This document shows positions 3-15,654 of a DNA stretch of 64,000 nucleotides, one piece after another. Position numbers and translations under genes: made by a program. The notes under the pieces are model-generated. The model saw only the letters and a program-made list of their open reading frames with translations, was not told the DNA's origin and did no database searches. Numbering within the stretch: the first letter of the stretch is position 1; every line of letters begins with the position of its first letter. Origin of the DNA: Gemmatimonadota bacterium (lineage in GTDB: Bacteria; Gemmatimonadota; Gemmatimonadetes; Gemmatimonadales; GWC2-71-9); contig JBDHKN010000009.1 of assembly GCA_039586365.1 (NCBI GenBank), positions 10,354 through 74,353 on the forward strand, written 5' to 3'.

Positions 3-416
3 AGCTACGACATGAACGACGATCCGATCCCGTACCAGCGCGAGAAGACAAGCCAGTCGCCGACCATGGTGTTGCGGGAGGACATGCCATTCATCGTGGT
101 GGGGTCGGCAGGCAGCAGCCGGATTCCAGGTTCCATCATGCGAGCCATCGTAAATGTCATCGATCACGGAATGACACTGGGGGAGGCATTGGCCGCGCGG
201 CGCTGGTTCATCTATGAGAACGAACTCCGGATCGAGGTGACAGACCTTGCGGAATCGACTTTGGGTTCGCTCCGAGACTACGGCTACACGCTGCGTACCT
301 ACGACGGATTGGACAGCTACTTCGCCAGCGTCCACGCCGTCATGTTCGACCGCTCAGCCGGAATTCTGCACGGGGCCGCCGACCCGAGGGACTTTGGAGC
401 GGCCGGAGGGCGCTAG
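3..416 (+). CDS. ggt: Gamma-glutamyltransferase family protein, C-terminal fragment (5'-truncated by window edge)
   Basis: Frame open from the window start. Has a TSQSPTMV motif (cf. SSMSPT), GSAGSSRI (cf. GSPGGSRI), NVIDHGM...AL..RR and terminal GAADPRD-G, all typical of the GGT small subunit. Confidence 0.85.
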   Translation, partial: SYDMNDDPIPYQREKTSQSPTMVLREDMPFIVVGSAGSSRIPGSIMRAIVNVIDHGMTLGEALAARRWFIYENELRIEVTDLAESTLGSLRDYGYTLRTYDGLDSYFASVHAVMFDRSAGILHGAADPRDFGAAGGR

Positions 417-801
417 TCACGGGAGCCGTGAGCTCCACGGTCGGCCTCAGGTCGCAGCCGAGTGGGCCCCCGGCCGAGACGTTTCACGTGCGGCGAGCTA
501 GCTCGGCGTTTGTACCTGTCACGGCTGCTCTCCGCGTCATGCTCGACAGTAGCTCGTTCGGGGTCGCTCCGGACCAGTGCACCCGCAAGACCGTCACATT
601 GGCTCCGTCCCTAGCGCCGTGCAGCGGGCCTGACAGTGCCGCACCCAGACTGGGATACAGAATGAAGAAGCTACGCGAGGTCCTTCAATTGATGTCATCC
701 TTTCTTGCCTTCGAAGCACGACCCAATTGGTATGGCGCTCAATCAAGACACACCAAGTCCCGCCACGAGCCTACCAGCCCTTTTCCCAGCGCTAGGCGCA
801 T

Positions 802-1665
802 GTGTTAGAGGACACCGATTCGCGATTTAGTGGGGACCTGGGAGTTCCTGGGGCCCCTTTTCTCCGCAGGCTGCGTCATTTCGCGTGCGGTTCCGGGGTA
901 ACAACTGAAGTTGGTGACACCGGATTGTATCATGCTGTGCGGCGATTCTTTGAGGCGTTCGACGATGAGCGTGAAGACCACCATGTATCTGTCTCGCTGA
1001 TGCCGATACCCGATGGCTATGCAGTGACACAGCCGGGGGAACGGACTGTAGTGTGTGACTCAACTTCAGATGCAATAGCCGCTTATGAGTTTGCCGTTAC
1101 AAACAACCTCCTCAGAGGCTGCGATCACGTTCAGATCCACTCGTCGGGCTCAGTCCTAAACGACCGAGCCGTTCTGGCTTTGGGGGCATCGGGCGCGGGA
1201 AAGTCCAGTCTTGCACTGGCGTGGCTAGCTGCGGGTTACCCCACTCTGGGAGACGACGTCGTGCATCTCGCTGCCGACGGTCGCGCGCTTCCCTTCAAGC
1301 GACTGTTCAAGGTCTCTCCCGAGATGCTGCAACTCGTGGGAATAGATCCGGCCACAACGCCATTCTGGAATGCGGAATGCGAAGAGGCATGGTACGATCC
1401 CGACGACGCGGCGGGTTGGGCAGACACAGCTCAAGTGGAATTGGTAGCGCTGTGTCGCAGGCAGGTCGGCGCCCGGCTGTCCGTTCGACCAGTCGATCGC
1501 ACCGCCGGACTCAATGCTCTCATGCATAGCCTGATGGAGACGTGCCGCTGTGCAGAGAATAGCCTCGATATTCTGGTGGAGGTCGTCAAGCACGCTCGCG
1601 TGGTTGAGGTCACCTTCGAGTCGGCTTTGCCAGCCGCAGCAGCCATCACAGAATACCTGCAATGA
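802..1665 (+). CDS. HPr kinase-related P-loop kinase
   Basis: HSSGSV...AVLALGASGAGKSSL (Walker A) followed by GYPTLGDDVV, the HprK/PEPCK-type DD signature. Stop overlaps the next gene (ATGA). GTG start uncertain. Confidence 0.8.
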   Translation: MLEDTDSRFSGDLGVPGAPFLRRLRHFACGSGVTTEVGDTGLYHAVRRFFEAFDDEREDHHVSVSLMPIPDGYAVTQPGERTVVCDSTSDAIAAYEFAVTNNLLRGCDHVQIHSSGSVLNDRAVLALGASGAGKSSLALAWLAAGYPTLGDDVVHLAADGRALPFKRLFKVSPEMLQLVGIDPATTPFWNAECEEAWYDPDDAAGWADTAQVELVALCRRQVGARLSVRPVDRTAGLNALMHSLMETCRCAENSLDILVEVVKHARVVEVTFESALPAAAAITEYLQ

Positions 1666-2774
1666 CAGTTGAGGTAGCTCGGTCGTTCGCGCAAATCCTC
1701 GCGCGGTCCGCGGCAGAACTCGGGAGCCGGGATCCAGGTGCTGGGAACCGGCTGGCCGCGGGCTTCGGGATCCTGGGGTTCCTTGCTCGCAATACCGGCG
1801 ATGGGCGGGACGAAGCACTGGAGGGCGCCAGACTACTTGCCGGGATTATCGAGTCTACGCTGTTCGAAGCGGCGGTTCAGATCTCGCGCGCGCTGTCGGT
1901 TGGGACGGTACCGCATTTCTTCGTGAAGGGGATCGCCCTGTCCGGTCGAGCGTACCGGTCCGGCGACCGAGAAATGGCTGACATCGACCTGCACGTGATG
2001 CCTAGCCTGTGGTCCAGAGCAGTCAATATCCTGAGCGATCTGGGCTACACATTGCTGCCGCCCGAAGAACAAGACGGACCCGCAGCTCTGCGAGCTGGAG
2101 TAGCGCTGCAAAGAGGCTCAGCGGGTTCGGAGATCACCGACATTGCAGTGGACCTCAGATGGGGCCTGGATCCGGTGAACCGATTGTTGCCACGGCCCGA
2201 TCTGCCCGTCCCGCAGACTGTCTGGAGAGACCTCGATCGGACAGGACCGATACCGGTGCCGTCCGATCACCATCACGCTGCGCTGATCGTTCACCACCTA
2301 GTCCATCACGACATGTTGCACGTTCGCGGCCTACTGGATCTAGCGCTGCTATGGAGTCGACTGTTACCCGAAGGTGGCAGGAAGTTCGAAGACTTGGCGC
2401 GCGAACTCGGGGTGCTGCGGGCTTCACGAATGCTGGGAAAGGTGCTGGTGAAACACTTCGATCTCTCACCGTGCGGACTGGAAGCTCCACCGGACGATGT
2501 GAGAAGTCGCAGGGCCCTGGCACTGCTCGAACCAGTACGTTGGTGCTGCTGGGCCGCGCGCGCCAGTGAGAGCGAGTTTGTGGAGATCACGTGGCTGCGC
2601 GTTCGGAGACGGTTACTGTTTCTCGACAGCTTGCGGTCAGTGCCGGCTCTGGTACAGGACGCGGTGCTTCCGCCCAGGGAGTACCTGCGTTGGCGCTGGC
2701 CGTATTCGAGATCGGCGGCCACAGCCTTGGGCCGGCATCTCAGTCGAGTGATTGCGAAGACTTTCGTGCGCTAG
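1662..2774 (+). CDS. Nucleotidyltransferase family protein (NTP_transf_5-like)
   Basis: FVKGIALSGRAY...REMADIDLHV matches the KG-x-L...Y...R-x-M-x-DIDL signature. Also has a His-rich HHLVHH...LLDL helix. Confidence 0.85.
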   Translation: MTVEVARSFAQILARSAAELGSRDPGAGNRLAAGFGILGFLARNTGDGRDEALEGARLLAGIIESTLFEAAVQISRALSVGTVPHFFVKGIALSGRAYRSGDREMADIDLHVMPSLWSRAVNILSDLGYTLLPPEEQDGPAALRAGVALQRGSAGSEITDIAVDLRWGLDPVNRLLPRPDLPVPQTVWRDLDRTGPIPVPSDHHHAALIVHHLVHHDMLHVRGLLDLALLWSRLLPEGGRKFEDLARELGVLRASRMLGKVLVKHFDLSPCGLEAPPDDVRSRRALALLEPVRWCCWAARASESEFVEITWLRVRRRLLFLDSLRSVPALVQDAVLPPREYLRWRWPYSRSAATALGRHLSRVIAKTFVR

Positions 2775-2825
2775 AGTCGCAGGGCTCGTTCTTGCCCGGC
2801 ATGAAGCGGTTTCCTAGTTTGCGGC

Positions 2826-3113
2826 ATGACCTCATCAACCTCTGACGTGGGTCCCAAGGGCCGTTCTGACGTGGTCTTCCGGCAACTCGATGATGGATGG
2901 GTGTTGTTTGACCCACGCGCGACGAAGCTTCATGCTTTGAACCTGTCCGCGGCGCTCGTGTGGGCGCACTGTGATGGCGGGTACGATGCAGACGGAATTG
3001 CCCAGGCACTCGCTGCATCGTTCGACCCGCCGGTTTCCATGTCCCGGGCCCGACAGGACGTCGACGCAACTCTGAAACGGTTTCGAGCAGCCGGACTCCT
3101 CGAGCCGAAGTGA
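2826..3113 (+). CDS. PqqD-family protein / stand-alone RiPP recognition element (RRE)
   Basis: 95 aa. VVFRQLDDGWVLFD...LHALNLSAALVWAHCDG...IAQALAASF...DVDATLKRFRAAGLL fits the PqqD fold (3 strands + 3 helices). Confidence 0.9.
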   Translation: MTSSTSDVGPKGRSDVVFRQLDDGWVLFDPRATKLHALNLSAALVWAHCDGGYDADGIAQALAASFDPPVSMSRARQDVDATLKRFRAAGLLEPK

Positions 3114-3117
3114 CTTA

Positions 3118-4269
3118 GTGCAGTACTATCGCGATCTCTTGGCCCAGGTGCCGCGGATAGAGGCGTTCCGTGCGGCGATCCGTCGCGTGGTCCGACCGGA
3201 CGACCGTGTACTGGAGGTGGGCACCGGATTGGGTACCTACGCCTTTTTCGCGGCTGACGCGGGCGCCGCGCGCGTGTGGGCGGTGGAAGGGAATGCGGTC
3301 GTGCACGTGGCCGAGACGATCGCGCGATTGAACGGTTATGGCGGGAAGATTGACTTCATGCGAGGCTGGATACCGGAGGTCCAGTTACCCGAGCGTGCCA
3401 CGGTTCTGATTTTTGAGGATTTCCCGGCCCGGCTGCTGGACAGCAGAACCTTCACCTTGCTCAGGAATCTGCATGAGTCATATCTCGAGGCTGGTGCCCG
3501 CGTGGTCCCGGCGAAGGCCCAGTTGTTCTTGGCACCAGTTGGTTTCGCGATGTCCGTTGATCTGCTGGGTGAGGCAGATGACGTAGCGTACGGGATCGAC
3601 TGGAAACCGAGTCGGGAGTATTGGGCGAATACGCCGCACCATACCGCCGTACCCGGACACGCCGTAGCTGGCGATCCGGTGGCTATTGGAGAGATCGACT
3701 TCGGCCTCCACCCGGATGCTGGGGTCTTGGGCGGCGAGGCCAGCTGGATCTGGGACCATGATGTCGTGGTTCATGGCCTGGCCTACTGGTTCGACTTGGA
3801 TCTTGGTGGAGATCAGCACCTGTCCAACGCACCCGGGGCCGAGCCGGCTTCTTGGGGCCAACTCCTGCTGTCCATCGACTCACCCATTACGGTAGCTGCG
3901 GGGGCGGAACTGCGAGCGGCGGTGGCCTGTGACAACTTCCCAGACGGTGCGCCTGGCTGGCTCAGGTGGAGTGCCAAGACTGCCGCGATGAGCGGTGGAG
4001 GCCACGAGTTCGCAGCGAGGCCGGCATCGTTCGCTGACCTCTACAACCAATCACCCGACGCCGTGCCGCGTTTGAGCGCGCAGGGGGAGCTGGAGCTGCA
4101 AGTAATGCGGCTCACAGACGGGAAGCGGACAATATGCCAGATTGCAGAGGAAGTGCGCCGGGTGCAGCCGCGATTGAGAGAGCTCGATGCCCAGCGCCTT
4201 GTGGTGCGCATGTTGGCGGGGAAACTTGAACAGCCTGCGTGGCGTGATGTTGCCGAGGCAGGAGGTTGA
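3118..4269 (+). CDS. PRMT-like SAM-dependent methyltransferase with a C-terminal RRE/winged-helix-like tail
   Basis: N-terminal RIEAFRAAI helix, VLEVGTGLG motif I, AGAARVWAVE post-I, IFEDF..LLD in the double-E loop position, VHGLAYWFDL...LSNAP...SWGQ beta-barrel/THW-loop equivalent, and a C-terminal TDGKRTICQIAEEV helix motif. Confidence 0.8.
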   Translation: MQYYRDLLAQVPRIEAFRAAIRRVVRPDDRVLEVGTGLGTYAFFAADAGAARVWAVEGNAVVHVAETIARLNGYGGKIDFMRGWIPEVQLPERATVLIFEDFPARLLDSRTFTLLRNLHESYLEAGARVVPAKAQLFLAPVGFAMSVDLLGEADDVAYGIDWKPSREYWANTPHHTAVPGHAVAGDPVAIGEIDFGLHPDAGVLGGEASWIWDHDVVVHGLAYWFDLDLGGDQHLSNAPGAEPASWGQLLLSIDSPITVAAGAELRAAVACDNFPDGAPGWLRWSAKTAAMSGGGHEFAARPASFADLYNQSPDAVPRLSAQGELELQVMRLTDGKRTICQIAEEVRRVQPRLRELDAQRLVVRMLAGKLEQPAWRDVAEAGG

Positions 4270-4272
4270 GGA

Positions 4273-4536
4273 ATGTCGCAGGAAGATAGACGAGCCTTTC
4301 TCAAGAAGCTGGCCAAAGGAACAGTTTACGCCGCTCCGGTGGTGCATTCGCTGGCGGCACCGCTCGACCTCGTGGGGCAGGGTAAATCGTCTGAACACAA
4401 GCGCGAACGCGGGAGCCGGGCAGCGACGGCGTCCCCCGGCGGGAGCAGCGTTACTCAGCAGACGGACATCGGTGCTCCGCCGCCGGGGCAGCAACCGCCG
4501 CCGGGGCAGCCTAACCGGCCGCCATTCCAGCGATAG
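4273..4536 (+). CDS. Small peptide, putative RiPP precursor/substrate with twin-Arg-like leader and Pro/Gln-rich tail
   Basis: GGAGG about 7 nt upstream of the ATG (plus GAGGA abutting it), 3 nt after the methyltransferase stop. Sequence MSQEDRRAFLKKLAKGTVYAAPVVHSLAAP... contains a YxxP motif. Confidence 0.7.
   Translation: MSQEDRRAFLKKLAKGTVYAAPVVHSLAAPLDLVGQGKSSEHKRERGSRAATASPGGSSVTQQTDIGAPPPGQQPPPGQPNRPPFQR
4477..4510 (+). repeat. Direct repeat CCGCCGCCGGGGCAGC x2 (18-nt period) encoding PPPGQ x2
   Basis: Copies read directly at 4477-4492 and 4495-4510. Confidence 0.9.
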
Positions 4537-5082
4537 TTCCAGGAGCCCTCGATGGAGTTCTGGGGCTCGCTACAACTTGATATCTGCCGTGCTCCCTCAG
4601 CGGGCTGTCGGGCGGGGGGAGTTGCCGGAGGTGCCGCCCGCCATTCCTGCATGGAAAGCTGAGCCAGCCTGGTTTCTCCCTCGCTTCTGAATTAGTCAGG
4701 AAACCAGTCTCCCTTCACGGCGCTCTGCCTGGCCAACTATGGGCCGTTTGAATCTCGTAGCAATCGGCGGGGCAGGCAGCGTTGGCGACGGGCAGCCAGA
4801 CTCACGGCGGCTCTCGCAGAACGGGTCTCCGTCGCGGTATTCAGCCGATCCATGCCTCGCGTCTTCGCTGGCGTTTGCCGGATCGCATCCCGTGTGTTCC
4901 AGGTCACCGCAGAAATCTGCGTCACATACCATCTTGTCGTAGTCGAGCTGGAGGTGCTGCGGGAGATGGATTCAGGAGAGGATTTGGTGGTTTTGGATCT
5001 CGATTGCTCTTGACCAATGGTCGCGAAGCGGATCATATTACCCGCCCCTTCCTGGCGTTCGTAGCAAAAGGATTTCAAGCAG

Positions 5083-5328
5083 ATGGCGTGGAGAGTAATC
5101 GACACAGACGGAGAAGAGTGGCAGGTCCAAGCCGCAGCCGAACGTAGAGCCAACACCAAGCTGTGGCAACTGAGCTTGTCTTTCCGGCCGCGGAGCTCGG
5201 ACCGGGAACCTCGAGCCATCTGGGCCCAGTATCCACTAGAATCTGTCTCGAAATCCAGTCTGTTTCAGGCAGCGGACCGCATTTCGGACGAGGACCTCAG
5301 GGAGATTCTCGTCCAACACATCTCCTGA
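5083..5328 (+). CDS. Small hypothetical protein
   Basis: 81 aa of protein-like composition (MAWRVIDTDGEEWQV...L.F...ISDEDLREIL). First of three co-oriented small ORFs. Confidence 0.75.
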   Translation: MAWRVIDTDGEEWQVQAAAERRANTKLWQLSLSFRPRSSDREPRAIWAQYPLESVSKSSLFQAADRISDEDLREILVQHIS

Positions 5329-5627: not shown

Positions 5628-6041
5628 ATGACCACCGGGCGAGCGCCCGAGCGACTCAGATTCGTCGATTTCGAGTTCGCGACGGAGGCGAGTGGGCAGT
5701 GTCACTCGCGAGTGGTGCTGGAATGGACGCCGGGAGCCTCGTTCGTGGGTGAAGCGAGGGGGTTGGCGTCCGCCGCCGGGGAGTTGAGATGTGCGGCCGA
5801 AGCCACGGTTGACGCACTTGAGAAGGCTGTGGAGGGGAAAGTGAAGCTGGAGCTACTTGGAGTTAAGGCTGTGAGGGCATTTGATTCAGTCGTCGTTATC
5901 GTTTCCCTGTCTTGCCACAACGGATTCGCGCAGCGCGTCGTGGGTTCCTATCTCTCGGCAGATGAGGTCCCCCGCGGGGCCGCCTTGGCGGTGCTGAATG
6001 CCACGAACCGCCTGCTCGGGAATATCGTCTTCGTCCGATGA
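5628..6041 (+). CDS. Hypothetical protein (duplicated alpha/beta unit ending A.A.L.A.NR)
   Basis: AAGGAG RBS. Stop overlaps the mltD start (ATGA). Two similar units (CAAEATVDALE / GAALAVLNATNR). Confidence 0.75.
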   Translation: MTTGRAPERLRFVDFEFATEASGQCHSRVVLEWTPGASFVGEARGLASAAGELRCAAEATVDALEKAVEGKVKLELLGVKAVRAFDSVVVIVSLSCHNGFAQRVVGSYLSADEVPRGAALAVLNATNRLLGNIVFVR

Positions 6042-7561
6042 CAAAGCCCTGTTGGACTAACCGTTGGCTCTACGCCGGCGGGGCGATGCTGATCCTCGCA
6101 CCGGCCTGTTCGCGCGGACCAAACGACTTGGCTATCCGGCCGGATTCGTCACAGGATGTACCCGAGGAAAGACCTGTGGCGGTTGCGGCGCCGGTTCCGT
6201 CACCGGAGGACTCCGCTGCAGACCTCAGGGCACTCGAAGCGCTTAAGAACCTGGAGTATCGCAGTGTGGCGAAGGGCGCCGACCATGTGCATGGAACTCT
6301 GACGGCGTCAGACCTAGGTGATGTTGCGTCCAGCTCGGGAATCACCCCACCACGCGCGACGCCAGGCCCACGTGGTGGACCGGCGCGAGCAGCTGGGCCG
6401 AGCTACGATATCGATGTAGAGTCGTACGCGGACCATGAAAGGGTCGAGTATTACAAGGAGTTCTTCCTGGGTCCCTCCCGGGAACGTTTCTCCATCTGGC
6501 TGGGGCGACTGAATCGATATGAGGGGATGATCAGGAACCGGTTCCGTGCCTATGGCGTTCCTGAGGACCTCGTGTATCTGGCCATGATCGAGAGTGGTTA
6601 CTCGAATACGGCCGTGTCCCGGGCCAGCGCAGTGGGGATGTGGCAGTTCATGGCGGGGACGGCTCCTCGCTACGGGCTCGTCGTAGATGAATGGGTGGAT
6701 GAGCGTCGGGATCCGTTCAAGGCAACCGATGCGGCTGCGCAGTACCTAGCGGAGGCGAAAGAGCAATTCGGCTCTTGGTACCTGGCAGCGGCGGCGTACA
6801 ACGGCGGCCCGAACCGAGTATTGCGGGGTATCCGGCGGCTGGGAGATACGCTGACGAGTGACGAGACGTTCTTCGAATTGTCGGACCGGCGCTGGCTTCG
6901 GCGCGAAACCCGCGACTATGTCCCCAAGCTCATAGCCGCAACTTTGATCGCCAAGGCGCCATTGAGCTCCGGGTTCGACAGCATCCCGTACCTGCAACCG
7001 CTGGTGTTCGACGAGATTACGGTTCCCGGCGCCACAGGCCTGGACGTTCTGGCCGACCTAGCGGATACGACGGTCAGGGCGCTGGTGGAGCTCAATCCGC
7101 ACTACTACCGCGGTGTCACACCTCCCAAGAGCAACGCGATTGTTCGGTTGCCGCGTGGCACCGGCAGTATGGTCGCACGGCGCTACGCCGAGTTGCCGCC
7201 GGAGGAGAGGGTGAACTTCCTCCAGCACAAGATCGCTAGGGGCGAGACACTTGGCGAGATCGGGCAGCGCCATGGAGTGAGCGTGAGGCTCTTGATGGCG
7301 GCCAATCCCGGTGTGGAGCCACGGCGCCTGCGGATTGGGCAGCGGCTCGTAATCCCCGTTAGCTCAGCCGCAAGAGCTGCTCCCAGGTCGGCACCAAGCG
7401 TGCTGCGATCTGGTACCCGCTACCATTTAGTCAGCTGGGGCGAGAGCCTGTGGGTGATCGCTCGTAGGTATGGAGTGACGGTCGAGAACCTGCTGCGTTG
7501 GAATGGTATGGGCCGGGACGATGTGTTGCACGCAGGTCGGAGGATAGTGGTAGCGCCGTAG
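6038..7561 (+). CDS. mltD: Membrane-bound lytic murein transglycosylase D-like (SLT + two LysM), probable lipoprotein
   Basis: LAMIESG catalytic Glu, AVGMWQFM, AAYNGG, ETRDYVPK, two LysM repeats (HKIARGETL; HLVSWGESLW), and a lipobox-like LAPAC. Confidence 0.9.
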   Translation: MTKPCWTNRWLYAGGAMLILAPACSRGPNDLAIRPDSSQDVPEERPVAVAAPVPSPEDSAADLRALEALKNLEYRSVAKGADHVHGTLTASDLGDVASSSGITPPRATPGPRGGPARAAGPSYDIDVESYADHERVEYYKEFFLGPSRERFSIWLGRLNRYEGMIRNRFRAYGVPEDLVYLAMIESGYSNTAVSRASAVGMWQFMAGTAPRYGLVVDEWVDERRDPFKATDAAAQYLAEAKEQFGSWYLAAAAYNGGPNRVLRGIRRLGDTLTSDETFFELSDRRWLRRETRDYVPKLIAATLIAKAPLSSGFDSIPYLQPLVFDEITVPGATGLDVLADLADTTVRALVELNPHYYRGVTPPKSNAIVRLPRGTGSMVARRYAELPPEERVNFLQHKIARGETLGEIGQRHGVSVRLLMAANPGVEPRRLRIGQRLVIPVSSAARAAPRSAPSVLRSGTRYHLVSWGESLWVIARRYGVTVENLLRWNGMGRDDVLHAGRRIVVAP

Positions 7562-7660
7562 TGGGGGCCGCATGAGGCGCGCGAACTGTAGGGGCGCAGG
7601 AGATCGGGTCGGGACGTTACCCGCACCTCTTGAATCACGCAGATTCCCGCTGAGTCCGCT

Positions 7661-8374
7661 TCAATTCCCTCCTGGATACCCTTCCATCAATGACGACGGG
7701 TAGCCGTTGTCGGGATTCTGTCCTTCCTCCAACAGCGTCTTGATTCTGGTGGGCCCCCGGTTGTAGGCCAGCAGCGCCAGACGCATGTCACCGTAGGTTT
7801 CCATCAGGTCGCGCAGGAATCGGAAACCGATCCTCAGGTTGGTTTCCGGCTCATAGAGTTGTTCGGCTGTGATGGAGGGATCGTAAAAACGCGCTGTTGC
7901 AACCTGAACCTGGGCCAAACCGAGAGCTTTGGCTGTGCTCGTGGCCCGCGGGTTGAATCCACTCTCCAAGTTCACCAAGCGGAATCCCAGTTCCGGATCG
8001 ATTCCCTCACGGAGTGCGATGTCGTAAACCAGAGCAGTGAAATCGGCAGGAATCCGATAGCGTGTGGAGTAGAGCAATAGCGATTCGGCACGCTCGAGCT
8101 TGAGTCGGACCAACTCCAATTCAGCCGTTGTCGAGTCGAGTGTGGTCCGCAGCCTCGCGTATTCGGAAAGGACGGCCGCACCAGTGTAGGTCTCGGATTC
8201 CGCTGATGCCGTCGCCCGGGGTGGCCATCCTCCTACCACGGTCGCGAACAGAATGAGTGCTGCAAACAGGGCCAATCCCCGCAGTATCAACTTCTGTGTT
8301 GCCGAGAATCGGTTCCGACCGTGCCGCGGAGCTACGGTTGCCTCAGCGATCAGGCGCTTTGTCAGGTCCACCAT
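7661..8374 (-). CDS. Lytic transglycosylase (SLT domain) with N-terminal TM helix and coiled coil
   Basis: LVNLESGFNP.A.S...ALGLAQV...NLRIG...ALLAYNRGP SLT motifs. Confidence 0.85.
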   Translation of the reverse strand: MVDLTKRLIAEATVAPRHGRNRFSATQKLILRGLALFAALILFATVVGGWPPRATASAESETYTGAAVLSEYARLRTTLDSTTAELELVRLKLERAESLLLYSTRYRIPADFTALVYDIALREGIDPELGFRLVNLESGFNPRATSTAKALGLAQVQVATARFYDPSITAEQLYEPETNLRIGFRFLRDLMETYGDMRLALLAYNRGPTRIKTLLEEGQNPDNGYPSSLMEGYPGGN

Positions 8375-8380
8375 CCTTAG

Positions 8381-8432
8381 ATCTCTACCTCCATCTCTTA
8401 TTCTCTACCTCCATCTTTCATTCTCTACCTCT
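8381..8432. repeat. 20-bp tandem repeat (about 2.6 copies of (A/T)TCTCTACCTCCATCT(C/T)T(T/C)A)
   Basis: Units at 8381-8400, 8401-8420 and a partial unit at 8421-8432, between the moaC stop and the SLT gene start. Confidence 0.85.
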
Positions 8433-8928
8433 CCTCATGGGGAAGTTGGTTGTCTGGCTGCCGTCGCCAGTCACCGTGAGTCCCGCCGGTCTTCTCCAAC
8501 AGCCGGACCCCCCCTATCTCCATCGTGTGGCCGGCTGCTTTGACCATGTCGTAAACCGTGAGTAATGCTGCCGTAACTGCAGTCAAAGCCTCCATCTCAA
8601 CCCCCGTCTTGCCTTCCGCTTTGACCTCAGCTTCAACGCGCACGCCCGCCAAGCTCCGATCCGCAACGGCAACCACTCGGACGTGATCCAGTGGCACTGG
8701 GTGGCACAGTGGAATCAGCTCACTGGTACGCTTTGCTGCGGTTACCCCGGCCAGCTCCGCTGTCGTCAGTACGTGACCCTTGGGTCCTGAGTTCTCCTCG
8801 ACCAGTGCCAGTGCCGCCGCGGACATTCTGATGACGCCAGTGGCCAAAGCCGTGCGGACCGACGACGGTTTTCCGCCAACATCCACCATTCTGGCCCGGC
8901 CACTCCCATCCACGTGCGAGAGGGTCAC
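8425..8928 (-). CDS. moaC: Cyclic pyranopterin monophosphate synthase MoaC
   Basis: LSHVD..GRARMVDV, AAKRTSELIPLCHP, KTGVEMEALT, YDMVKA, LLEKTGG. Confidence 0.97.
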   Translation of the reverse strand: MTLSHVDGSGRARMVDVGGKPSSVRTALATGVIRMSAAALALVEENSGPKGHVLTTAELAGVTAAKRTSELIPLCHPVPLDHVRVVAVADRSLAGVRVEAEVKAEGKTGVEMEALTAVTAALLTVYDMVKAAGHTMEIGGVRLLEKTGGTHGDWRRQPDNQLPHEER

Positions 8929-9980
8929 AACAGCCGCTCCAAATCACTGGCCAAGACGGCCATGGCTAGCTGAGGGTTGGCGTTGGCTTGGGCTTCGGCT
9001 CGGGTCTCCTCGACCCGGCGCAGTGCCGCAATGCGGTACTCCAGGTCGTTGCCCGCCAACGTGTCTGCGGCCAACCTGTCACGCAGCCTGACGGCTAGCG
9101 CCTCCAGGATTGCGGAGAAGTCACCCCTTGCCGCCCAAGGCGCCTGCGCCAGTGTACGGAGTGACCACTCACTTGCTCCACCTTCGATGGCCTTGAGCAA
9201 ATCTTCCGCAGCCCTATCCGCTTCGTTGTCACTATCCTGCGCCCATAGGGCGCGTCCGATGCTCCCGTCGGCCAAGAGTGTGCGCCGTTTCAAGGCTTCC
9301 CCCTTCATGGGGGGGTCAATTTCACGTTGGAGGAATTCCTGGACCTCGGCGTCCCCCACTCGAGTAACCCGTAGGGGCACGAGCCGCGACCGTATGGTCG
9401 GCAAGAGGCCTTGTGGCTCGGATGCGGTCAGGATTATCACGGTGTCGCTCGGCGGCTCCTCGAGCACCTTGAGCAGCGCGTTCGCCGCCTCTTGACTGGC
9501 CTCCTGGACCACGAGGCGCTCGGCATCACCGAGTACGACCACCTTGCACGGACCCTGGAACGGGGTCAATGAAACCACGCGCTGAAGCAATCTGATTGAC
9601 GCCAACGCGTGGCTGACCATGCCTTCGGCACGCCGATAGAGGGGCTGGTTGCGCCGCTCCTGCATGACCTCCGCCAACAGCTCCTTCACCTGCTCGACCT
9701 GCTTGTCGGAATCCCCGGTCTTGGGACGTGGGACCGGGACGAACCAGTGCAGGTCCGGGTGACTGAGGCGGAGTACCTGAGCACAGGCCGAACATTTACC
9801 GCACGGTTCCCCTGGTCCTGTTTGGCACAACAGTCCCTGGGCAACCCAGAGCGCCAACCTCTGCTTGCCCACGCCCGGCGCGCCAGCAAACAGCGCTGCT
9901 TGCGGGAACCGGCTGGAGGCGAGGGCGCCTGCCAGCCGGTGCAACAAGGCCGTGTGGCCGTAAATTGGCCGTAGATTCAT
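8925..9980 (-). CDS. holB: DNA polymerase III delta' subunit
   Basis: GAPGVGK, zinc module C..(EP)CGKCSAC, HPDL, AANALLKVLEEP, LLPTIRSR. Confidence 0.92.
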   Translation of the reverse strand: MNLRPIYGHTALLHRLAGALASSRFPQAALFAGAPGVGKQRLALWVAQGLLCQTGPGEPCGKCSACAQVLRLSHPDLHWFVPVPRPKTGDSDKQVEQVKELLAEVMQERRNQPLYRRAEGMVSHALASIRLLQRVVSLTPFQGPCKVVVLGDAERLVVQEASQEAANALLKVLEEPPSDTVIILTASEPQGLLPTIRSRLVPLRVTRVGDAEVQEFLQREIDPPMKGEALKRRTLLADGSIGRALWAQDSDNEADRAAEDLLKAIEGGASEWSLRTLAQAPWAARGDFSAILEALAVRLRDRLAADTLAGNDLEYRIAALRRVEETRAEAQANANPQLAMAVLASDLERLL

Positions 9981-12187: not shown

Positions 12188-14263
12188 ATGACACGAGCCG
12201 AGACTGCAGTGCAGTCCGGGCCTCGACCGCCCGGAGACTTGAATCCACGACGGGATCCTCCACTGGACTTTCCCGACGCGGATTATGGGGAGCTCTCAGT
12301 TGCCGACTACCAAGCGCTGGGATTCATGGCTGGCCTCGAGGTGCATCAACAGCTGGTGACTCGCTCCAAGCTGTTTTGCCGCTGCCCGGCCGGACGCAGG
12401 GCGAAGGTATATGATGCGGAGGTACTCCGGCATATGCGCCCGACCTTGAGTGAACTCGGCGAATATGATGGTACCGCGCTCATGGAATTCAAGACGCGGA
12501 AGGAGATCGTTTACCAGCTGGAACGTGGATCCGTGTGTACCTATGAGATGGACGACACACCTCCATTTGAGGTGGATCAGGAGGCTGTGCGGGCCGCCCT
12601 CGAAATAGCACAGCTCCTTGATCTGAATCTGGTTTCCGAGTTGCATGTGATGCGGAAGCAGTATCTGGACGGCTCGATCCCCACCGGATTCCAGCGCACT
12701 GCGATGGTCGGGCTGAACGGAACAATTCCGTTCAAGGTCCCGGAACTCGGTGTGAACCGGGAGCTGCACATCCGACAACTCTCCTTGGAAGAAGACTCGT
12801 GCCGCGAAGTAACCGACATTGGTCACCGAATCACCTTTCACACTGATCGGCTGGGAACGCCACTCACGGAGACGGTCACCGAGCCGGAATTGTACACTCC
12901 TTTGGAGTTGCAGGCAGCGGGGCGGTGGTTAGCCCAGATTGCGCAGGCTACGCGCAAGGTGCGCCGAGGACCTGGTGCTGCGCGACAGGATGTAAACGTC
13001 TCGGTAGCAGGTGGTCGCCGCGTGGAGATAAAGGGCGTGGACAACCATCGGGGGTTGCCCCAGCTAGTGCACATCGAAGCGTTTCGCCAATTGAACTTGC
13101 TCCGCCTCCGCGCTGAACTCCACCGCCGCGGCGTCGTCAAGGAACTGCTCGATGTACCGGCCGTCGGCTGGCCGTGGGAGGAATCCGCGAACGTCGTCGA
13201 CGCTGGGGCCGCACTCTTGGACTGTGATTTCGCTCCTATCCAGCAGGCTTTGGAACGAGGAGAGAAGATATGTGCAGTGAGATTGCCGGGGTTCGGTGGA
13301 TTGCTGGCCCGCCGGACCCAACCTGGCACATCGTTCGCACGTGAGTTCGCGGACCGGATCCGAGTGATCGCATGCCCGGAGCACCGACCGTTCCTGATCC
13401 ACTCAGATCTCACGGATTACGGGCTGGATCCGCGGCAGTGGCGCGCCCTCGGCAAACAACTGAAGAGTGAGCCCGGTGACGCACTCATCGTGGTCTGGGC
13501 TCCGGAGCAGGATGCAGCGACGGCAGTGCGGGAACTTTTCATTCGCGCCCAAGACGCACTCGTGGGCATCCCAGCCGAGACGCGGCAGGCATTTAGTGAT
13601 GGTACGAACGGCTTTGAGCGCATCTTGCCCGGTCCTGACCGGATGTACCCCGATACGGACACTCCGCCACTGCCCATAGCGGACGCGCTAGTGGCGGAGA
13701 TAGAGGCGCTGCTGCCTGAGGCACCTTGGCAGCGGGAAGAGCGCTACCTCGAACTCGGTCTCGACGCGCGTACAGCACGGCGGTTGGTTGACTCCTGGTG
13801 GGCCGACCTGTTCGACGAGTTGGAGCCGCCGGCGGGGGACGTGGCTCGCAGGATAGCAACCGCCCTCGAAAAGCGGCTCCCGTATCATCGCCGAAAAGGA
13901 CGGCTCGAGGGTATCCGGGCGGCCAGGCGTCTGGCCCCACTGATTCACGCACTTGAGTCGGGCGAGCTAAGGCTCGAAGCAACGGAACGTGTCCTGGATA
14001 TGCTGTTCGAGCGAAGCGACATATCTGCCGACGGGGTACTCGACCAGTACTATACACGACTGCACGATCCGGCCGAACTGCAGCAACTGCTTGCCCAGAT
14101 CATCAATGATGCCGAGGAGCTGGCTGGAAAGCCCTTTGACGCAGTCGTGCGGTGGGCGACAGGGAGGGTGATACCTCGCTTCTTGGGTCGGCTGGACCCT
14201 GATGCATTGGTGGGTCAATTGCTCGCAGCGCTGCGTGAGAAGGTGGTGGAGGTGGGGACATGA
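12188..14263 (+). CDS. gatE: Glutamyl-tRNA(Gln) amidotransferase subunit E (archaeal type)
   Basis: GLEVHQQL...KLFCRCP, MRPTLSELGEYD, MRKQYLDGSIPTGFQRT, LEEDSCR, DRLGTPL.E, RRG.G..RQDVNVS, an AspRS-like insertion, and RILPGPDRMYPDTD. Confidence 0.93.
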   Translation: MTRAETAVQSGPRPPGDLNPRRDPPLDFPDADYGELSVADYQALGFMAGLEVHQQLVTRSKLFCRCPAGRRAKVYDAEVLRHMRPTLSELGEYDGTALMEFKTRKEIVYQLERGSVCTYEMDDTPPFEVDQEAVRAALEIAQLLDLNLVSELHVMRKQYLDGSIPTGFQRTAMVGLNGTIPFKVPELGVNRELHIRQLSLEEDSCREVTDIGHRITFHTDRLGTPLTETVTEPELYTPLELQAAGRWLAQIAQATRKVRRGPGAARQDVNVSVAGGRRVEIKGVDNHRGLPQLVHIEAFRQLNLLRLRAELHRRGVVKELLDVPAVGWPWEESANVVDAGAALLDCDFAPIQQALERGEKICAVRLPGFGGLLARRTQPGTSFAREFADRIRVIACPEHRPFLIHSDLTDYGLDPRQWRALGKQLKSEPGDALIVVWAPEQDAATAVRELFIRAQDALVGIPAETRQAFSDGTNGFERILPGPDRMYPDTDTPPLPIADALVAEIEALLPEAPWQREERYLELGLDARTARRLVDSWWADLFDELEPPAGDVARRIATALEKRLPYHRRKGRLEGIRAARRLAPLIHALESGELRLEATERVLDMLFERSDISADGVLDQYYTRLHDPAELQQLLAQIINDAEELAGKPFDAVVRWATGRVIPRFLGRLDPDALVGQLLAALREKVVEVGT

Positions 14264-15654
14264 GTGACGCCGACGATCGCTACAAGGGCTATCGTGGTCC
14301 GTGCGTCGAGCTCATGAAGCAGTACGGCGTAACAGTGTGGAGCGAAGTCAGGGCGCGGACCACTCGAGGGGACTTCGAGGGTCTGCTGTTGCCCCGGTCA
14401 GAGACCAGTGACGCTGAGCATTTAGTGCTCAAGCTCATCAGCGGCTACAATGTGGGCCTGCGCCATGACACGATTGTGTCAATGGAAAAGTGGGGGTATC
14501 GCGAGGCTCACTACAAGATACCTGAGAAAGAGTTCCCTGCCGATCCAGTGAATCCGAAGGTGAAGCTGCTAGGTACCGGAGGGACCATCGCCTCGAGGCT
14601 CGACTACCGCACCGGGGCGGTCATTCCCGCATTCAGTCCTGGAGAACTGTATGGCTCGGTACCGGAGCTCGCCGACATCTGCAATCTCGAGACCGAGAAA
14701 CTGTTCGGTGTGTTCTCCGAGAACATGGGACCCGAACAGTATCTGATCCTGGCGCAGAAGGTAGGTGAAGCAATCACTGAAGGATACGACGGAGTCGTTA
14801 TCGGCCATGGTACCGACACGATGCACCACACAGCCGCTGCGTTGAGTTTCATGGTTCAGCGACCTCCGGTACCGATCATCATGGTGGGAAGCCAGCGCTC
14901 CTCTGATCGCCCTTCCTCCGACGCGGCGCAGAACCTGATCAACGCCACCTGGGCCGCAGCTCACGGCCCGATCGCCGAAGTGCTGGTGTGCATGTTCGGG
15001 CCCACCTCTGATCGATACAACTTGCTGCACCGTGGGACTCGGGTGCGGAAGATGCACAGTTCCTACCGTAGCACCTTTCGCACAGTGGGGGACATACCTT
15101 TGGCCATGGTTGAGAAGGGGATAATAACCCCGCTAAAGAACGACTTCCAGCCGCGGCGCCGCGACACGGAAGTGGACGTCAGCGCCGTGTTCGAAGAGCG
15201 GGTCACGCTCACGTACTACTACCCGGGGATGCATTCAGATGTGATCGACTGTCTGATAGACCGAGGCTACAAGGGGATCGTCATCGCAGGAACTGGACTC
15301 GGGCACGTGAATCGCAAGATCTATCCCGCGCTGGAGCGGGCCCGCGATGCTGGTGTGCAAGTTTACATGACGTTGCAGACGTTGTGGGGTTTCGTGCAGA
15401 TGCATGTCTACGAAACCGGCCGTGAGATTCTGGGGCTCGGCGTGATTCCCCTCCAGAACATGTTGCCCGAAGTGGCTTACATCAAGCTGGGTTGGGCGTT
15501 GGGTGTTCACCCCGATGATCCCTCAGCGGTACGCAGTCTCATGCAAGCAGTTGTTGCTGGTGAGACGACTGAGAGAGAGCCGCACGACGGCTATCTGGTG
15601 TTGCAGGGCGGAGTGCCGGAAGTGCAAGAATTCCTGGAGAAGGTGTGGAGGTGA
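14260..15654 (+). CDS. gatD: Glutamyl-tRNA(Gln) amidotransferase subunit D (asparaginase-like glutaminase)
   Basis: GatD N-domain (GLLLPRSE...LKLISGYNVG), TGGTIASRLDYRTGAV, HGTDT, GSQRSSDRPSSD, KMHSS.R. ATGA overlap with gatE. Confidence 0.95.
   Translation: MSDADDRYKGYRGPCVELMKQYGVTVWSEVRARTTRGDFEGLLLPRSETSDAEHLVLKLISGYNVGLRHDTIVSMEKWGYREAHYKIPEKEFPADPVNPKVKLLGTGGTIASRLDYRTGAVIPAFSPGELYGSVPELADICNLETEKLFGVFSENMGPEQYLILAQKVGEAITEGYDGVVIGHGTDTMHHTAAALSFMVQRPPVPIIMVGSQRSSDRPSSDAAQNLINATWAAAHGPIAEVLVCMFGPTSDRYNLLHRGTRVRKMHSSYRSTFRTVGDIPLAMVEKGIITPLKNDFQPRRRDTEVDVSAVFEERVTLTYYYPGMHSDVIDCLIDRGYKGIVIAGTGLGHVNRKIYPALERARDAGVQVYMTLQTLWGFVQMHVYETGREILGLGVIPLQNMLPEVAYIKLGWALGVHPDDPSAVRSLMQAVVAGETTEREPHDGYLVLQGGVPEVQEFLEKVWR

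Follow-up and report, generated by a model that had tools for sequence, protein, structure and literature searches.

PRMTs are usually viewed as eukaryotic enzymes and are defined by two glutamates that hold the arginine. Within 64,000 nucleotides of DNA from a Gemmatimonadota bacterium (contig JBDHKN010000009.1; the window), a PRMT-like protein is encoded directly upstream of a small peptide, which raises the question of what such a bacterial enzyme would methylate. A preliminary description, made from the sequence alone, had read it as a leader-dependent peptide methyltransferase with an RRE-like tail, which may act on arginine of the peptide or, given its changed loops, on histidine or lysine.

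Fold and active site of the methyltransferase

The features of the gene are as follows.

3118..4269, + strand: methyltransferase ORF, GTG start, 383 codons
3118..4014, + strand: PRMT core, residues 1-299, with Rossmann domain, arm region (YGIDW) and beta-barrel (structural match, PRMT6 alignment)
3415..3444, + strand: residues 100-109, a double-E loop that keeps its first Glu and has lost the second (PRMT6 alignment)
3847..3855, + strand: ASW where PRMTs have THW; the Trp never varies and the Ser is not unusual (alignment to PRMT6 and close sequences)
4078..4215, + strand: three-helix tail, residues 321-366, the helical half of a PqqD-like domain, strandless (models, hhalign)

The strings quoted in the preliminary description were found in the ORF, namely LLAQVPR at residues 7-13, FEDFPARLLD at 99-108, HGLAYWFD at 219-226, LSNAP at 235-239, ASWGQ at 244-248 and VMRLTDGKRTICQIAEEV at 329-346. 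When the protein was compared with solved structures by phmmer, the best match was PRMT6 (E 7e-24, residues 4-277), whose YGVDM aligns with the arm YGIDW, and the Pfam model PRMT_C (PF22528) reached 32.1 bits (cut-off 27). The structure predicted from 98 sequences had a pLDDT of 93.7 and matched PRMT3 best (2fyt; Z 28.5, rmsd 2.8 over 290 residues, model range 1-298). The top 15 structural rows were PRMTs only (Z 22.8-28.5), while the next methyltransferase scored Z 12.5, and Foldseek was concordant. These results confirmed, on the predicted model, that the gene is genuine and that its product has a full PRMT fold, well beyond chance; the complete architecture proposed earlier, including the barrel, was thus borne out. 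At E <=0.001, 184 homologues were found among 8000 scored candidates, and among the 120 matches listed, identity ranged from 43 to 93% and the organism-named ones were Gemmatimonadota. A promoter and terminator scan of positions 400-5200 returned 2 promoter-like elements against 0.9 expected and 1 terminator-like element against 3.2 expected.

Atlas searches returned bacterial clusters automatically named 'L11 methyltransferase' and unnamed small proteins. Identity as PrmA was ruled out by its Z of 12.5 compared with 28.5 for PRMT3 and by scores below cut-off in the domain scans.

In the alignment to PRMT6, E100 corresponds to the first glutamate of the double-E loop and S109 to the position of the second. 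E100 was present in 121/121 close sequences and a glutamate at position 109 in 4/121, so that by alignment the second glutamate is missing in 117/121. Asp108, one residue before this position, was found in 85/121 and, from its place in the sequence, might be a partial stand-in. The tryptophan of ASW (W246) was invariant (121/121), and serine instead of histidine precedes it in 32/49 distant relatives that keep both glutamates; PRMT5 is likewise described, in the accessible text of PMC11721204, with an FSW loop. Position 10 was Gln in 100/121 close homologues, and in the 55 precursor-linked loci it was Q in 32 and D in 14, showing that Gln10 in place of Asp is not fixed. Thus, of the three sites presented as divergent in the preliminary description, LLAQVPR and ASW carry less weight: judged from the alignments, the double-E loop alone is diagnostic, and the informative change is the loss of the second glutamate.

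The SAM-binding motifs were intact. Motif I is EVGTGLG at 33-39, with G35 and G39 invariant in the 121 close sequences, an acidic D/E at position 57 (post-I) was present in 121/121, and R13 in 117/121; a dead enzyme is therefore unlikely. The protein has the fold, the SAM motifs and a THW-loop variant of a PRMT, and the alignment points to one glutamate where a PRMT has two. With PRMT1/3/6, CARM1, PRMT5 and PRMT7 it shares the Rossmann domain and beta-barrel, the arm motif and the first Glu, as well as the helix-Y Arg and the Trp of the THW/FSW loop. Unlike eukaryotic PRMTs, it lacks the second Glu, has a Tyr where their helix Y has His, carries an extra three-helix tail and is found in a bacterial operon. 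YFxxY is a further PRMT motif, and it is missing here because the protein begins at helix Y.

More distant relatives were also observed, as 136 representatives with a full core drawn from the best 150 of 14,638 matches. Both glutamates were present in 49/136 (within P0158-P0266), 11 of these 49 had HW, and many had the same tail; by sequence, these double-glutamate proteins are candidates for true prokaryotic arginine methyltransferases. Another 15 loci (L046-L064) are lasso-type clusters with a kinase and mostly a nucleotidyltransferase, and the distant PRMT-fold relatives encoded there have a DLRG-type loop and Tyr or His replacing Trp. These relatives form another uncharacterised branch, likely with substrates of its own.

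The C-terminal tail and the gene cassette

The preliminary description had taken the last part of the protein for a leader-binding RRE. The tail consists of helices at 321-332, 339-349 and 355-366; the full model shows no strand past residue 296, and a model of the tail only shows none at all. The tail profile matched only the helical half of the cassette PqqD (hhalign 94%, 41 columns), and hhalign with this profile gave no sequence match to the strand half; PF05402 was matched at E <=0.05 by 13/98 members. Against solved structures, the tail profile matched 8hkr (Rv2067c) best, at E 4e-4, and PqqD 5sxy at E 8e-4. Fold searches with the tail only placed PqqD first but weakly (E 0.59; Z 5.3, rmsd 3.0, 52 residues), nothing reached E 0.001, and the Z lies within the range of common helical bundles. 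The tail therefore has the three-helix bundle homologous to PqqD and lacks the beta-sheet, unlike the PqqD/RRE domains (PF05402; 3g2b, 5sxy, 6jx3, 5v1u), which are whole. A similar DGxRT helical tail forms the C-terminal domain of Rv2067c (8hkr), a protein lysine methyltransferase for which the literature available to us in part reports no RiPP role. As judged from profiles and models, the tail is PqqD-related and not a whole RRE.

According to the accessible text of PMC12710340, alpha3 together with beta3 makes up the cleft of an RRE, where the leader binds by pairing with beta3. Since the tail is strandless, it could not form such a cleft alone. Precursor-bearing loci whose enzyme has a nearly complete catalytic core numbered 55, and 17 of them had no in-frame tail; in one of these, L088, the gene is interrupted and the tail lies further on, leaving 16/55 tail-less, three of them identical. 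Most tail-less loci fell into one clade (support 0.87, midpoint-rooted FastTree), which means few losses and not 16. The tail was present in 106/136 distant relatives with a full core, irrespective of the active site, and a complete discrete PqqD resembling lasso B1 is encoded directly upstream of the enzyme. The relation to PqqD helices claimed earlier thus holds, whereas the role as RRE is not supported: the tail is more probably a family-wide accessory piece than the leader reader of the cassette. In L088, the core frame covers 5869-7950 and the tail 9449-9844, with about 2.5 kb containing other ORFs between them, and the precursor follows the tail.

Three genes precede the methyltransferase.

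802..1665, + strand: HprK-like kinase with Walker A GASGAGKSSL and a GDDVV motif (TIGR04352 and PF07475, both below cut-off)
1662..2774, + strand: PF14907 (NTP_transf_5) nucleotidyltransferase (Pfam 63.7 bits, cut-off 31.2)
2826..3113, + strand: discrete, complete PqqD/RRE that probably serves as adaptor for the leader (PF05402, full-length model match at 51.5 bits)

The sub-cut-off kinase matches were E 6e-6 for TIGR04352 (HprK_rel_A) and E 8e-4 for PF07475, and the true kinase start may lie downstream of 802. The PqqD protein scored above cut-off for TIGR04353, and its profile matched the lasso B1 proteins TfuB1 and TbiB1 as well as PqqD (E 1e-6 to 3e-6). The gene order is kinase, nucleotidyltransferase, PqqD, methyltransferase and precursor, with genes abutting or overlapping.

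We examined 117 loci (1 + 36 regions, one of which is the window's own contig, + 80). Linkage was counted in loci at least 35% identical with enough flanking DNA, leaving out the window and L127 and L129, which are partial loci with distant-type loops. The precursor was present in 44/45 loci with enough downstream DNA; in the 32 loci assessable upstream, PqqD was found in 32/32, a kinase homologue in 30/32 and a nucleotidyltransferase homologue in 26/32. Among 401 genomes of the phylum, an enzyme match occurred in 40 and a precursor match in 20, the two being adjacent in 16. This conserved gene order agrees with the earlier proposal that a SAM-dependent PRMT-fold enzyme and the peptide encoded after it belong together, here within a RiPP-like cassette. 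The cassette also occurs in reduced forms: L080 and L094, with more than 5 kb upstream, have PqqD, enzyme and precursor only, and L173 and L176 are kinase-PqqD-precursor clusters without the methyltransferase.

Distant enzymes (26-32% identical) lie in clusters with ORFs read as lasso cyclase, B2 and B1. By phmmer over the 117 loci, the L060 ORFs read as cyclase and B2 had homologues in 15 and 11 loci, respectively, and no lasso cyclase or B2 homologue was found in any precursor-bearing locus. In the host genome, matches to PF00733 and PF13471 were on other contigs only. No SpI-like peptidase or MsbA-like exporter was seen among the ORFs around the window cassette or, by eye, in homologous loci, and ORFs and domain scans revealed no protease gene in the cassette.

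Other observations concern the surroundings. L032, L034, L035, L040 and L042 share the same flavoprotein oxidoreductase-like gene 3' of the precursor. What follows the cassette in the window, L001 and L037 is instead a set of small ORFs and a gene resembling lytic transglycosylases. On another contig of the same genome, a second PqqD (G000:C91:6625-6807) and an asparagine-synthase-family gene (C91:18906-20024) lie 12 kb apart. Elsewhere in the window, a short imperfect repeat of ctctacctccatct units was noticed by eye at 8370-8433, just upstream of a minus-strand transglycosylase-like gene. Adjacent gatE (12188-14263, + strand) and gatD (14260-15654, + strand) exceeded the cut-offs of archaeal-type models (TIGR00134, 413.6 against 319.55; TIGR02153, 491.4 against 324) in what is apparently a bacterial genome; GatDE is usually described as specific to archaea.

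The precursor peptide

The precursor ORF starts 3-4 bases past the methyltransferase gene.

4273..4536, + strand: precursor peptide, 87 aa, with conserved leader, short Ser/His/Lys core start and Pro/Gln-rich tail (leader profile)
4288..4305, + strand: twin-arginine (Tat-like) motif RRAFLK (R6 invariant, R7 at least 90%; 53 aligned)
4327..4344, + strand: YxxPx[V/I/L/M/A] motif YAAPVV, which the RRE is predicted to recognise (P22 without exception, Y19 in 90% or more)
4378..4401, + strand: predicted start of the mature core, QGKSSEHK, with Ser39/Ser40 as predicted kinase site and His42/Lys43 as candidate acceptors

The leader profile found 61 frames, of which 56 were unique with the anchor motif; dropping 5 cut-short ones left the core set of 51 unique precursors. 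The host genome has one strong precursor copy, and the next matches to the profile in this genome were other twin-arginine N-termini. Family models applied to the precursor identified no RiPP family. YxxPx[VILMA] was present in 53/56 leaders. RRxFLK is the Tat consensus, and our own simple pattern for a Tat signal was passed by 48/56 leaders and failed by 8. TIGR01409 was matched weakly by 16/53 (best E 9e-4) and PF10518 by 4/53, and the host genome encodes TatC (E 4e-64). Judging by these sequence features, the precursor is probably a small, exported peptide. Thirteen residues past the Pro there is Gly or Ala in 47/51, then mostly Gln (37/51), and the predicted cut Gly35|Gln36 sets Y19/P22/V24 at -17/-14/-12. 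Two tandem precursors with differing cores, one a long Met-Gly repeat, were observed in L038 (9779-10312) and L089 (1979-2518).

Core composition was compared with shuffles; as the precursors are related, these contrasts overstate significance and serve as description. The pattern after the leader is Gln-x-x-Ser-x-[Lys/His/Met]. Ser was present in the first 7 core residues of 48/51 (shuffles 26.7 +/- 3.3, max 39), and Ser followed by K/H/M within 5 residues in 44/51 (shuffles 18.2 +/- 3.3, max 31), which keeps histidine and lysine, as named in the preliminary description, plausible as targets. Arg, by comparison, was depleted, occurring in the first 12 core residues of 3/51 (shuffles 14.3 +/- 2.6, min 6). 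An Arg anywhere in the core was found in 33 precursors, mostly within the Pro-rich tail, and the KRERGSR of the window is atypical of the family. Together with the loss of the second Glu, this argues against the Arg of KRERGSR, the other target suggested earlier. Any K/H/M in the first 12 residues was only mildly above shuffles (48/51; 41.6 +/- 2.5, max 49), with K in 29, H in 21 and M in 37 of the 51, and the most constant core feature is not K/H/M but Ser (49/51 in the first 12). Met is missing from the core encoded in the window, and Lys from that of L094. Met made up 13.5% and His 5.8% of the first 16 core residues, a richness that could come from metal binding instead of methylation.

A clade with Tyr102 had Met-rich cores, but it is a single clade, and enzymes with Phe102 have Met-rich cores too; co-variation of the active site with core type was therefore dropped. 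In the cores of L038, L075, L077, L081 and L098, the Met run is followed by two conserved Cys (as in FCDYFPxxC).

Related systems, proposed pathway and alternative substrates

The closest likeness is to the LPP system of Bacillota (LppA/K/B/S/D/N). According to the accessible text of PMC13381572, LPP clusters have, as here, a free-standing RRE, an HprK-like kinase and an uncharacterised NTP transferase but no macrolactam cyclase, and their precursors keep a YxxP leader before a variable C-terminus. There, LppK phosphorylates core Ser3 of the linear peptide, and LppN had no activity in its test. A Ser stands soon after the cleavage site in both cases (Ser3 in LPP; Ser4/5 here, at the predicted cut). 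LPP clusters also contain a SpI-like peptidase and an MsbA-like exporter in that account, whereas the cassette has neither and its leader has RRxFLK instead. Compared with the LPP definition, we thus found the RRE, kinase, NTP transferase and YxxP-Ser precursor, and not the peptidase or exporter. The PRMT-fold methyltransferase is an addition to the LPP-type set; the main text of PMC13381572 contains none of the words 'methyltransferase', 'Tat' and 'twin-arginine'.

Phosphorylated lasso clusters (bsf, PMC10368454; paeninodin and pseudomycoidin, PMC8498205) likewise combine an RRE-assisted Ser kinase with a nucleotidyltransferase, as far as these sources were accessible. BsfK with the RRE BsfB1 phosphorylates Ser3, using leader Tyr-17/Pro-14/Leu-12 (PMC10368454, accessible text), and this YxxPxL register of -17/-14/-12 equals Y19/P22/V24 here, given the cut Gly35|Gln36. 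In pseudomycoidin, a nucleotidyltransferase extends the phosphate, as summarised in the review PMC8498205. However, lasso clusters have a cyclase and B2, and since neither was found in the precursor-bearing loci, the product is predicted to be linear. Lasso methyltransferases such as StspM are described, in the sources at hand, as C-terminal carboxyl O-methyltransferases, unlike the PRMT-fold enzyme here. In the literature searched, mostly open-access main texts, we found no description of a bacterial PRMT-fold peptide methylase or a Tat-leader RiPP, of RiPP clusters containing a PRMT, or of Gemmatimonadota with this cassette. The enzyme family could be contained in the co-occurrence table for LPP or in the RRE-Finder tables.

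The substrate is very probably the precursor, in one form or another, and from the sequence comparisons the target is more likely lysine, histidine or methionine than arginine. Our tentative reading, which falls a little short of an even chance, is a variant of the LPP system in which the PRMT-fold enzyme methylates a Lys or His (or Met) beside a phosphoserine before Tat export. The discrete PqqD/RRE would bind the YxxP of the leader, as the BsfA-like register (-17/-14/-12) suggests, and the HprK-like kinase would phosphorylate Ser39 or Ser40, by analogy with LppK and BsfK. The PF14907 enzyme might then place a nucleotidyl or sugar group on the phosphate, for which pseudomycoidin is a weak precedent. 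With SAM and the retained Glu100, the methyltransferase would modify a side chain 1-5 residues past the Ser, here His42 or Lys43; this step is the least certain. Finally, the RRxFLK leader would direct the peptide to Tat and a housekeeping signal peptidase would cut Gly35|Gln36, a likely exit route because the cassette has no peptidase or exporter. The helical tail would be accessory and not read the leader. A more specific version, which we consider doubtful, has a pocket rewired from arginine to accept Lys, His and Met broadly, yielding S-methylmethionine or methyl-histidine, with the leader acting as both RRE dock and Tat signal. Against the Lys/His/Met reading stands the lack of a universal acceptor, which would make the enzyme family promiscuous or split in specificity. 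A predicted complex of enzyme, PqqD, SAM and precursor residues 1-50 scored 0.65, and a control with the enzyme replaced scored higher, at 0.73, so that the prediction was given no weight for or against binding.

Other substrates were weighed against this reading. It is unlikely that the enzyme caps the adduct on the modified serine (phosphate, nucleotide or sugar) and not an amino-acid side chain. Such a role would fit the near-universal Ser of the cores and the lasso-type distant relatives, which have a kinase and mostly a PF14907 enzyme despite different precursors. Loop residue Arg105, present in 104/121 close sequences, might contact a phosphate, but it occurs in just 35/55 precursor-linked loci and the pocket is still acidic (E100/D101). 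The L080 and L094 loci, without kinase or nucleotidyltransferase, fit a target needing no prior phosphorylation, although both are metagenome contigs and the kinase may be elsewhere in those genomes. PRMT-fold enzymes are also not known to act on a phosphate or sugar. Somewhat less probable still is another near-constant group of the precursor, such as the Gln at the predicted cleavage site, the hydroxyl of a second Ser/Thr, an amide of the backbone or the N-terminus newly made by cleavage. A constant target would account for the conservation of the active site better than K/H/M, and Gln is at or near the site in 41/51 and Ser/Thr in the first 7 residues of 50/51, yet about a fifth of precursors have no Gln there. 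The new N-terminus would never meet a cytoplasmic enzyme if the leader is cut after export, and the cassette contains no protease gene.

We consider it very unlikely that the enzyme is a true arginine methyltransferase acting, perhaps guided by its tail, on a core Arg (KRERGSR) or on the twin-arginine of the leader. The second Glu is gone in 117/121, core-start Arg was found in 3/51, the tail is missing from 16/55 loci, and methylation of the twin-arginine would be expected to hinder Tat targeting. What speaks for it is the full PRMT fold with E100, R13 and W246 retained, Asp108 (85/121) as a possible substitute, the invariant leader Arg6, and the existence of relatives that keep both glutamates and have this tail as well (49/136). 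Equally improbable is a substrate other than the precursor, either a partner enzyme or a small molecule, or a precursor that is an unmethylated, Tat-exported His/Met-rich metal binder. The core Met (13.5%) and His (5.8%) contents and the DGxRT-type tail of Rv2067c, with no RiPP role in the reports available in part, are consistent with this, while the precursor is adjacent in 44/45 loci, with genes abutting or overlapping, and is kept in the minimal three-gene form.

Since the enzyme has the whole PRMT fold minus one glutamate and its candidate substrate is encoded alongside, the Lys/His/Met reading can be tested directly at little cost. The wider bacterial family is large and, in the part of the literature searched, unstudied, with double-E, single-E and lasso-linked branches. 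The cassette would carry LPP-type systems beyond Bacillota, and its leader is predicted to function in modification as well as in Tat export. Metal binding, suggested by the His/Met-rich cores, would be one testable role for the product.
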